Position numbers and translations under genes: made by a program
Notes under the pieces: generated by a model
Told to the model about the DNA's origin: nothing
Databases searched by the model: none
What the model saw: only the letters and a program-made list of their open reading frames with translations
Shown: in pieces, positions 23,108 through 26,017 of the stretch
Layout of the letters: every line of letters starts with the position of its first letter
Numbering within the stretch: the first letter of the stretch is position 1
DNA from: a virus
Taxonomy: Duplodnaviria > Heunggongvirae > Uroviricota > Caudoviricetes
Virus record (IMG/VR): IMGVR_UViG_3300028833_000063
Location: 1 to 64,000 of that record
Strand: one strand, 5' to 3'
Length of the DNA stretch: 64,000 nt

Positions 23108-26017
23108 ATGGATAGGACTACATTTAATCAAATAGGTAATCTTGCCTTTTATGATGGGTGGAAACCTAACTATATATATTTTAAGTCATTACTCACCGCT
23201 GGAGAAACTTATAGTGATTCTGCAAATAATAGATGGAGATCAGATTTGGCTTCGCCCATAGCTGATCGCGCGATAGCAGACGCTACTGCACGTTCTCATC
23301 TGAACGGATTATCTGAGAAAGAGGCATCCACTGCTATGCTCGAACGTTTTAATAAGATTTGTACATTTTTACAGAATGCAATTACTTATGAGCGCAATAA
23401 TGAAATTAGTTATTTTAGATAGAAATATGAATAGTTAAAGAATGCCTTTACTCCTGAAGAGCAAAAAATTATTCCTTAGTTAGCAGAATTATTTGAAATG
23501 TTTAATCCAGATAATACTCAGGAATTTAGTTATACAAAATTTATTACATTAATAAACGTACTTTAGCATGGATTAGATCAAACTAAAGTAATTGTTGACT
23601 ATGAGCAGTAGCACCTTTCAAAGATTGATAATGCAATAAAAGAAGTAGTACAAGCCCGTGATAACCAAATAACCGGTTTAGGCACTAAACAAAAAAAATC
23701 TTTGAAAGAAATTCAAGAAATGGTAGAAAAGAGTCATCAAAAAATTGAAAATGAACTAACTGTTGAATATTTAAAGCATGGCTCATTTGGAAGTAGAGAC
23801 GCTTCTGGAAAATATCATAGTAATGTGCGTGGAGTGTAGGCGCATTTTGATTTTAAGAAATTTCATAATTCTATAGATGTAGAGTTGGCACATTGGATAA
23901 CCAACACACTTAAAGATATTATTCAAAATGGCGATTTGGTAGATAGACTCGCTTCAGTATTGCAGTCTAATTACCCAGTAGATGGTAACTTTTATAATCT
24001 GTCACGCGAAGTAAAAGCCAAGATTATTGATGCGGTTTAGTCATACGGTATAAATAACTTAGCTAAAGCATTAAAAACCCGAGTGACAAGTAAATATGCT
24101 AAAGAAATTGCAGAGAACATTGCCAACAATCCAAATATCTATAATACATAGTCAGCCTATAATATTAAAGGATACTTTGATAATCATGGACAATACGGGA
24201 AAATTATAGAATTATTCGAAAATGTAAAATAGATTTCAGATCTAAAAGAAAAAAGTGCAACTGGCTTATATGATGCAATTAACAAACTAATAAAAAACTT
24301 AAATAGCAAAAAATGGCTACCAAGTCAAGATTAGACTTAGCTACAGCAAGTATTCGCAAGTAACAAATAGTGGGCTGGAATTGAAGAAATGGTTAATTTT
24401 ATTCATAAGATTGAGAAAATGCAAAAAGAATTAAATAAAATTCAAGAGAAATATGATAAAGGGATATTACAATTAAATGAAATTAGTGGAAAAACCTTAT
24501 CAAGTGGAAATAAAGATAAAAATCATATCGAGGTACAACTAGAAGTTGTAGATGATAAAGTAACAATACGCGCAAATGAAAAAGGAAAATCATCGCTTGG
24601 CTCAGCTATTAGTTCAATTTCGACTTTTAAACGCTTTGGATTGTAGTCCTTTAATCCATCGGATTTAGAAGGTGCAATCTCATCATTAAAAAAAGCAGCT
24701 TCTTAGTCTTTACGAGACAAACTTGTTCAGAGCTTAGAAGCAGCGATGCAATCTGATAAATTTGGATTATCGGAAGGAGAATTGTTGAAATCAACTTCAC
24801 AAGGACTATAGAATTTAAAAATTAGTATTGGCGGCCCAAAATTAAGTGAAATTACAGCAGGCCTTAACTTCCGCCAACGAGGTAATGACTTAATTGTTGA
24901 TTGGACTGGCAGTAATAACGGAAAAAATGACGTAGTTTCAATTACGATTGATGTTAATAATGTTAAAACACATATAGATGTATTATTTAATGATAGACTT
25001 GAAGGAGTAGTAACGTCAGTGACGAAAAATGATATTATGTCCGCACGAGAATAGTATTTAACCGCAGTTAATGACGCTTTTGATAAAGCAGTAAAGAAGA
25101 ATACTACTAAGAATGTTGATAAATATACTATCTAGGGTAAAATTTTTTAGGATTAGAATGACGAAAAAGATAAGCAAGTAACTGATGCAATGGAACAATT
25201 GCAAACATTATGGAAGAAAATAGATAAAGATTTAAGAAAACGTAAAATTTCAGAAGATACTAGAAACAAATTACGTAAGCGTTTTTTTTCTATTTTAACT
25301 GATAGCTTTTATGTCTCAACAACGGTTAAAACGTATAATGAATATAGTAATTAGATAGGATATCTTGGTGGGAGTCTAGGGAGCGACTTAGAATCTCAAT
25401 TAAATAGGATTGGAGAATTATTTATGTCGACAGGAAATAGATTGTCAAAAGATGATATAGATTGGTTACAATTTGCTATTATTAATTGTACGCCATATAG
25501 TGTATTAGGTACGTCAAATAAGGGATTAATTGAAAGTTATTTAGGTAGCGTTGCTGCGCTTGCATTATTTGATGAAGGCAGTGCTGAAGGAGAGGTAATA
25601 CAAACTTTTGCAAAATAGCTAAAAGATGGAGCTAATGCTAATAAAGCAGTAAACAGAACCGGTTCGATGAAAATTCTACATCTATATAAAGGCAACGGTA
25701 TTTATGTGCCCAGCTCATATATACTTGAATAGGTTTTAAAATCTATTCAAGAAGAAGTCATTCCTAATATATTAATGATTCCTATTACCATGAAACGCGG
25801 AGCTGGTATTACTATTATTAATAATGTTTCTGAGCGAAGTACAAATATTCCTAATCGTCCTATTTTTAATCGTACATCTTGGAATAGTAATGCTTGGGCA
25901 GATGCTGGTGCTAGCGCGGAAGGGCAGGTTAAGTTATAGATTTTATTTCTTGCTGGACTATTAGATATCGTAAATAGTATCAATGCTACATTGTGCGGTG
26001 TAGAAGTGCCAGGTTAA
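23108..26017 (+). CDS. large 969-codon protein with about 20 in-frame TAG codons
   Basis: single frame checked codon by codon from ATG 23108 to TAA 26015-26017; only TAG interrupts it; three track ORFs (23108, 24389, 25424) share this frame; RBS GGAGGCGAGA. Confidence 0.6.

Follow-up and report, generated by a model that had tools for sequence, protein, structure and literature searches.

A single 969-codon gene with 23 in-frame TAG codons in a phage predicted to read UAG as glutamine

In a 64,000-nucleotide stretch of viral DNA (Caudoviricetes; positions 1 to 64,000 of IMG/VR record IMGVR_UViG_3300028833_000063; hereafter the window), positions 23108-26017 hold what standard-code gene calling presents as a few short open reading frames (ORFs). 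Read with TAG as a sense codon, the same positions form one long frame, to which we refer as the amber-rich gene. The evidence assembled here makes it highly probable that this is a single coding gene of a phage in which UAG stands for glutamine (Gln), with a full-length product tied to the late phase of infection, after a switch of the genetic code.

Results

All coordinates are positions in the window, and features lie on the plus strand unless stated otherwise. From the ATG at 23108 to the TAA at 26015-26017, frame-1 translation of the amber-rich gene runs through 969 codons, specifying a mostly alpha-helical product, and contains 23 in-frame TAG codons (2.37% of codons) and neither TAA nor TGA before the terminal TAA. 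The first twelve TAG triplets begin at 23420, 23432, 23477, 23564, 23609, 23837, 24038, 24149, 24230, 24332, 24338 and 24368, and the last eleven at 24644, 24704, 24809, 25052, 25133, 25148, 25154, 25352, 25616, 25730 and 25937. The closest in-frame stop other than TAG on the 5' side of the gene is a TAA at 23054. The original prediction of a single plus-strand frame from 23108 to 26015 broken by TAG alone is thereby borne out, and neither an overlooked TAA or TGA nor a frameshift is present; its estimate of about 20 ambers at a density of some 2% was right in density, the exact count being 23. The described fragmentation was reproduced as well: under the standard code the region yields ORFs at 23108-23422 (104 aa), 24389-24646 (85 aa) and 25424-25618 (64 aa), together with short ORFs on both strands. 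Given the base composition of the region, a run of 968 codons would escape both TAA and TGA with a probability of ~1e-28. The Poisson probability of at least 23 TAG codons in this gene, judged against 28 TAG in the 15,985 codons of the other plus-strand ORFs, is 1.5e-18. A Shine-Dalgarno sequence, GGAGG, lies at 23091-23095, 12 nt upstream of the ATG at 23108, and the surrounding ATGGAGGCGAGATATAAGCATG is kept in close orthologues.

Homologues were sought with TAG translated as Gln (the loci of relatives are labelled L001, L002, L003 and so on). A word-indexed search returned 18 of them, 15 being ~957-1009 aa long with a query coverage of 99-100%, and a HMMER profile search extended the family to 517 representatives of clusters at 50% identity, ~65 of them full length; a larger set among these clusters consists of proteins of ~780-810 aa that have mainly the C-terminal 260 residues in common. 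The orthologue in L003 (26-28% identity) is a TAG-free and uninterrupted ORF of 964 codons. Because TAG terminates 2 of the 33 genes of its locus, L003 represents a standard-code sister phage, and an orthologue without any TAG in such a phage rules out genuinely separate short genes; no homologues of that kind, which the original prediction had named as a possible refutation, were found. Downstream of the first TAG, substitutions are in excess at the third codon position (116/85/180 over the three positions in comparison with L001, 39/20/85 with L008), and the gene is under purifying selection there. Finally, AlphaFold2 was run on P0001, a protein 94% identical to the window protein. With an alignment of 116 sequences, which replaced an earlier and poor run on 17 sequences (predicted local distance difference test score, pLDDT, 59), it gave a pLDDT of 88.7 and a predicted template modeling score (pTM) of 0.89 over the whole 969-residue chain, a pTM that argues for a single coherent fold. 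Full-length homologues, the 964-codon ORF of L003 and one confident model thus all favour one gene over fragments, as had been proposed.

Neither megablast of positions 22000-27500 nor tblastn of P0001 produced a match among 50,697 GenBank phage records, and 185,579 species genomes (GTDB) contained no homologue and no prophage copy, thus giving no clue to the host.

We then compared the TAG load of the amber-rich gene with that of other genes. A greedy ORF map of the window under genetic code 15 (TAG read as Gln) contains 64 plus-strand ORFs with 48 in-frame TAG codons altogether, of which 23 fall in the amber-rich gene (2.37% versus 0.16% elsewhere). Twelve of the 64 ORFs bear TAG, more than 50 genes have none, and the 26 larger window genes, checked by hand, contain one in-frame TAG in total. 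The surrounding replication genes stand at 0-0.5%, which agrees with the earlier statement that the density of the gene is far above theirs. The same picture recurs in five other recoded loci, where the orthologue reaches 1.65-3.1% versus 0.18-0.49% nearby. Orthologues carry 24 (L008), 25 (L001), 23 (L009), 23 (L010, 46% identity) and 19 (L002, 32% identity) TAG codons, followed by 30 each in L011, L012 and L013, 16 in L014 and 23 in L015; the remote orthologues of 785-811 codons have 13-18, such as the 18 in L038 (versus at most 2 in any neighbour) and the 14 in L050 (versus at most 5). In every recoded relative examined, the orthologue of this gene is the heaviest TAG carrier (13-30 TAG).

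The sites themselves are less stable than the load. Conservation of the TAG sites among homologous phages, put forward earlier as a check, holds for the close orthologues, which have 20-21 sites in common with the window gene, and fades with distance, to 5 sites in the orthologue with 46% identity and a single one in that with 32%; by chance, sets of 23 and 19 sites among 969 codons would have ~0.45 in common. Judged from these alignments, TAG sites turn over between lineages while the load persists across deep divergence.

AT bias as the cause of the enrichment was rejected, since GC content at third codon positions (GC3) does not separate TAG-bearing from TAG-free ORFs; the primase gene, equally AT-rich (GC3 0.22), has no TAG. 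Several small ORFs (467-847, 26066-26512 and 27384-27575) have densities similar to that of the amber-rich gene, with 2.0-2.6% given for small neighbouring ORFs, and the amber-rich gene is therefore the largest of a small TAG-dependent class and not unique.

The identity of the encoded amino acid was approached from codon alternation and from conserved neighbouring genes. Among four close orthologues (window, L008, L001 and L009), 12 columns alternate between TAG and sense codons, namely CAG in 8 of them, CAA in 7 and AAA in 3, with AGG, GAC, GAA and CTG as singletons; codons for Ser, Tyr or Trp do not occur in these columns, and the CTG singleton is the only Leu codon. In the PhoH gene of L002, the TAGs at RNLE[Q]KMAF and LL[Q]N correspond to Gln in every other orthologue, standard-code L003 included, and the TAG at NPYI[Q]ETI to Gln in the other orthologues except L003 (Asn). 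Four of five TAG columns in a D12 methylase show Gln alone among the non-TAG orthologues, and over the neighbouring conserved genes (PhoH, ClpP and D12 methylase) 24 of 57 TAG-aligned residues are Gln. The proposal to translate TAG as Gln is well founded on both counts.

Within the amber-rich gene, columns with TAG vary as much as those with CAA/CAG (entropy 3.14 versus 3.25, p = 0.11), and the base that follows TAG (166 sites) is distributed much like that after CAA/CAG (225 sites). TAG therefore behaves as an ordinary Gln codon, and the idea that it is confined to specially tolerant positions or to a special +4 context was rejected on the same data. As a terminator TAG is found in 0 of the 26 larger window genes, all of which end in TAA or TGA. 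Taken as they stand, these comparisons assign TAG to Gln (genetic code 15) in this phage.

A decoding transfer RNA (tRNA) was also looked for. The window opens with an array of 15 tRNA genes on the plus strand (240-8616; ARAGORN and Rfam), the last of which is tRNA-Gln(UUG) at 8545-8616. The relative L006 (IMGVR_UViG_3300028591_000108), with ~80-93% nucleotide identity to blocks of window positions 1-13,600, has a syntenic array with two tRNA-like genes of anticodon CUA, at 3299-3384 and 14830-14912 of its contig. The first, a tRNA(CUA) of 86 nt, is GC-rich. Its acceptor stem has 7 bp (U1-A72), the discriminator is G, the variable region measures 19 nt, and the D-stem of 5 bp with a 4-nt loop makes a D-arm like that of selenocysteine tRNA (tRNA-Sec); against the tRNA-Sec model this tRNA reaches 33 bits, which is below threshold. 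Its sequence hardly varies among 4 IMG/VR contigs and 13 contigs of JGI metagenomes (L006, L018, L019 and L020; L021-L033), with one variant in which U1-A72 is replaced in a compensatory manner by A1-U72. The phages that carry it have proteins only ~38% identical. A 182,655-bp contig holds both this tRNA and L012, one of the orthologues with 30 TAG codons. By synteny with L006, the tRNA(CUA) of the present phage would lie ~5 kb upstream of the window start. Since the tRNA(CUA) of the relatives is unlike tRNA-Gln, the Gln assignment rests on the codon and alignment evidence and not on the tRNA.

The second CUA gene of L006 has an unusual arrangement. At 14795-14983 of L006, a tRNA-Gln(UUG) carries an 83-bp insertion in its anticodon loop (after CTTT and before GAC), and the insertion is itself tRNA-like with anticodon CUA (43 bits on the Rfam tRNA model), that is, a tRNA nested in a tRNA. 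The window counterpart of the split gene, at 8545-8616, is intact, and an exact-match search found the nested tRNA in one IMG/VR contig only, that of L006. One may speculate that the nested tRNA might be freed by RNase P/Z and the halves resealed by the phage RNA ligase.

Other RNA features of the array region deserve a record. An odd long-arm tRNA at 6611-6696 (plus strand), labelled Ser(GGA) by ARAGORN, scores 43.9 bits on the tRNA-Sec model (gathering score 47). A group I intron (Rfam RF00028, 95 bits) lies at 1769-2014 (plus strand) inside a protein ORF that starts with the ATG at 1296; its candidacy as an intron interrupting a suppressor tRNA was rejected because it interrupts this protein ORF. 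L006 aligns to window positions 1178-1825 and resumes at 2166, so that 1826-2165, with most of the intron match, is apparently absent there. The 14-nt motif TTGGGCCGTAATTA occurs on the plus strand at 211-224, before a tRNA-Thr, and at 2069-2082, after the intron, with no longer similarity around it. At 14190-14300 of L006, corresponding to window positions ~7440-7550, there is a sub-threshold match of 34.9 bits to a Y RNA-like (YrlA) element. Window positions 13037-14548 encode a DUF2828 protein (phrog_850, 'RNA-binding protein'), which is encoded in the relatives too, together with an RNA ligase and a phosphoesterase. The YrlA-like match, the DUF2828 protein, the RNA ligase and the phosphoesterase may belong to an RNA-repair or Ro-Y RNA-like module.

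The amber-rich gene occupies a fixed place in the genome. The conserved order is RNA ligase, (SPFH), metallophosphoesterase, amber-rich gene and a membrane protein of ~145 aa, continued by RNase H, deoxynucleoside monophosphate (dNMP) kinase, DNA ligase, ClpP and PhoH; it is kept in the close orthologues and, judged by the sizes and succession of ORFs, in the remote ones too. Elsewhere the window codes for topoisomerase II subunits, a DnaB-like helicase, primase, a RecJ-like exonuclease and DNA polymerase, nearly all of these genes being free of TAG.

A scan found a terminator-like hairpin followed by ATTTTAT (23060-23090, with the hairpin at 23060-23083; GAAGCCATTC-GAAA-GAATGGCTTT) in the interval that separates the stop codon of the phosphoesterase gene upstream from the Shine-Dalgarno sequence of the amber-rich gene. 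A hairpin with a T-tract stands at the same place in most lineages inspected, L003 included, with differing stem sequences, and the hairpin at 23060-23083 is probably a terminator. No recognisable promoter lies between this hairpin and the ATG at 23108. Sigma-70 promoters of the form TTGACA/TTGACT-17-TATAAT, perfect or near-perfect, precede the first tRNA (81-110) and the phosphoesterase gene (22061-22089), and a perfect TTGACA-17-TATAAT precedes the RNase H gene (26509-26537). A late-promoter motif shared by the TAG-bearing genes was also considered, and no recurring motif was found upstream of them. The sigma-70 promoters and GGAGG sites point to early transcription by the host RNA polymerase; the strong GGAGG sites in particular suggest a host of the Firmicutes type. 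The phage is large and lytic, with a probable genome size of ~180-190 kb estimated from the contigs of its relatives.

Several other ORFs of the window bear TAG. Directly downstream of the amber-rich gene, a 148-codon gene (26066-26512) has TAG at 26078, 26252 and 26267, the Shine-Dalgarno sequence GGAGGTGA and a match to phrog_37604 (unknown function), and its product begins with a hydrophobic helix at the N-terminus. Its orthologue follows the big gene in L001, L002, L009 and L010 and lies nearby in L003, and in the remote loci an ORF of 119-184 codons comes next after the big gene. A small ORF of 63 codons (27384-27575) has TAG at 27423 and 27522, and its counterpart in L001 also has two. 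The gene of a ClpP-like protease (29311-29916) has one TAG, at 29383, which corresponds to Gln in L001 and L009 (QYFH[Q]LLDK).

Farther away, the gene of a Cys-rich repeat protein (19944-20711) has TAG at 20055 and 20265; by eye, the two fall at about the same spot in repeat copies (DRK[TAG]GNDWIWHCRCECG and NENG[TAG]AMWECECDCP). An ORF within the tRNA array (4965-5978), glycosyltransferase-like by eye only, has TAG at 5040, 5520 and 5559, and a DNA methyltransferase-like ORF (46622-47422) has one at 46700, in a region that by eye is the conserved N-terminal part. The gene of the DnaB-like helicase (54496-56100) has a TAG 7 codons before its TAA and is an ambiguous case for TAG as a terminator: early infection could yield a helicase that stops at the TAG, and the code switch could later extend it by 7 residues.

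The amber-rich protein itself has no family in Pfam, PHROGs or NCBIfam, no sequence match in the PDB and no fold match in the PDB or BFVD. Among 48 family members there were no PHROG matches and, in Pfam, nine single-member matches with E of 1e-3 or worse. Its invariant or nearly invariant residues include E99, E581, K606, D608, K741, G751/G755/G758, N793, F821, Y860, Y866 and S870, and these cluster in motifs such as NGKND, STTVKTY, IGFLGGSLG, ALFDEGGAEG and LHLYxxNGxYVPGSY. Such clustering may mark a functional site. Strong hydrophobicity is confined to one stretch, the conserved C-terminal helix ILFLAGLLDI. We propose, with low confidence, that the protein acts late and jointly with the downstream membrane protein, either at the envelope of the cell or as part of the virion.

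Discussion

In a standard-code host with release factor 1 (RF1), translation of the amber-rich gene would stop at codon 105, and full-length protein would have to await efficient decoding of UAG by a phage tRNA whose anticodon is CUA. The yield would then follow the read-through per site (s) raised to the power of 23, that is, 0.09 at s = 0.9, 0.31 at 0.95 and 0.79 at 0.99, so an appreciable amount of product would need at least ~95% read-through per site. The amber-rich gene and the small membrane-protein gene after it would be made late, after the code switch, and the nearly TAG-free replication and nucleotide-metabolism genes would be translatable from the start of infection. A late code switch has been put forward in the literature as the model of how phages come to use a mosaic of codes (10.1101/2021.08.26.457843). 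We infer suppressor-gated late expression of the gene on these grounds. The earlier claim that its translation depends entirely on a suppressor is backed in so far as the relatives encode tRNA(CUA), and stands in part, since the window has no such tRNA and the dependence follows by inference.

Several observations weigh against this view. The anticodon CUA occurs in none of the 15 tRNAs of the 64-kb window by ARAGORN and Rfam, and an exact-protein look-up, IMG/VR patterns and JGI metagenomes gave no contig linking a tRNA(CUA) to the window's own genome. The tRNA(CUA) of the relatives is atypical in shape for tRNA-Gln. The amber-rich gene sits among early-type replication genes, outside any recognisable structural or lysis module. 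Gating may also be a consequence of late expression instead of a selected function.

This last point leads to the strongest competing account, which we hold to be a real though lesser possibility and which shares the decoding of UAG and differs over cause and effect. According to it, TAG has no regulatory role and is a third Gln codon that builds up neutrally, helped by C-to-T pressure on CAG, in any gene whose expression already awaits an abundant suppressor, and the load is a passive marker and not a gate. The free turnover of TAG sites at columns as variable as those of CAA/CAG fits this well, as do the unremarkable +4 context and the similar densities of the small neighbouring ORFs. Codon counts in the amber-rich gene (7 CAG, 26 CAA and 23 TAG) show the depletion of CAG that is expected if CAG decays to TAG. 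Against neutral build-up speaks that the same gene tops the TAG count in every recoded lineage examined despite the turnover of its sites, and that genes as AT-rich as the primase have no TAG. Together, these two observations imply strong gene-specific selection, at least against TAG elsewhere. That the high load is itself selected, as an ultrasensitive gate (~s^23) on a protein of novel fold that would be harmful if made early, seems to us unlikely; one candidate for the gated protein would be a new kind of effector that acts late at the envelope, in lysis or in host shutdown, together with the downstream membrane protein.

Decoding of UAG as an amino acid other than Gln, for example as Ser, Leu or Tyr through a class-II-like tRNA(CUA) or as pyrrolysine, is quite improbable. 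It draws on the only well-conserved CUA tRNA of the relatives, whose long variable arm and discriminator G are class II features and which ARAGORN labels 'tRNA-Pyl'. This label mirrors the anticodon only, and the codons that alternate with TAG are CAG and CAA, with none for Ser, Tyr or Trp and a single CTG for Leu, in line with the conserved Gln that TAG matches in PhoH, ClpP and the methylase. Pyrrolysine was rejected on the grounds that TAG falls on Gln and that the CUA tRNAs have long variable regions; no search was made for pylSBCD genes.

The chance is slighter still that the host itself reads UAG as sense, in which case there would be neither switch nor gating and TAG use would mirror the host code. 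With no homologue in the 185,579 species genomes the host code is uncheckable, which leaves some room for such a host. We know of no bacterial lineage in which UAG = Gln has been established. In such a host, moreover, avoidance of TAG would be needless, and more than 50 window genes are TAG-free versus 23 TAG in one. For phages of this kind, the published analysis predicts hosts with the standard code (10.1101/2021.08.26.457843).

A decayed pseudogene or several separate short genes, which standard-code ORFs of at most 104 aa might suggest, have next to no probability, being refuted by the open frame, the full-length homologues (one of them TAG-free), the signature of purifying selection and the single high-confidence model of the whole chain.

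The reading of the amber-rich gene as one UAG=Gln gene expressed in full after a code switch can be set beside known systems. In classical amber suppression, a supE-type tRNA-Gln with anticodon CUA inserts Gln, and full-length product arises only where the CUA tRNA outcompetes RF1, as in the conditional-lethal amber mutants of T4 and lambda. Unlike supE suppression, the present case has 23 natural, evolutionarily maintained UAGs in one gene and would need near-complete reassignment in place of partial suppression.

Mosaic use of code 15 is known in gut and rumen phages of the crAss-like, Lak, Jade, Sapphire and Agate clades (Borges et al., bioRxiv 10.1101/2021.08.26.457843), and code-15 peptides in phages have been shown by proteomics (PMC9523058). 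As in those clades, TAG stands in frame on Gln, a minority of genes bear it (12/64 here; a mean of 26% of genes is recoded in the Sapphire clade, 10.1101/2021.08.26.457843), the replication genes largely keep the standard code and the recoded genes are dispersed over several locations. Further likenesses are a tRNA(CUA) encoded by the phage (here in relatives), low GC content (37%) and relatives' contigs of ~180-190 kb. No terminase gene was identified in the window, and the likeness to the gemstone clades is one of genome size, habitat and share of recoded genes only. In contrast to those clades, the most recoded gene here is a core gene without annotation that stands between genes for RNA repair and for replication and is not recognisable as a structural or lysis gene, and the suppressor tRNA of the relatives is Sec-like with a long variable arm.

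A further comparison is phAss-1 of the proposed Phassvirus, where TAG interrupts 41 ORFs and is re-read as Gln where homologues conserve Gln; suppressor tRNA-CTA genes are present, a dedicated aminoacyl-tRNA synthetase was not found, and the recoded genes named are TerL, portal, tape measure and tail fibre (PMC10607447). The window phage resembles it in the re-reading of TAG at Gln-conserved positions and in suppressor tRNA genes (here in relatives), and belongs to a different group, without matches in the 50,697 GenBank phage records.

The type of recoding is thus already known in gut phages, and the known picture of phage stop-codon recoding is unchanged. Beyond the routine are three features: the top recoded gene of this region is an unannotated core gene of no known fold among early-type genes, its amber load persists despite the turnover of sites, and the suppressor of the relatives is an unusual class-II-like tRNA(CUA). 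Because standard-code calling shreds a conserved core gene of 969 aa, the family of 517 clusters, which belongs to a group of large phages widespread in gut and rumen, is invisible to annotation. The 23 ambers in one gene set a quantitative bound of ~95% or more read-through per site when the gene is expressed, and such near-complete read-through of UAG would imply that RF1 is out-competed or neutralised. The amber-rich gene would thereby report naturally on when recoding takes place and how efficient it is, and its protein, as modelled, is a confident target for a novel fold.

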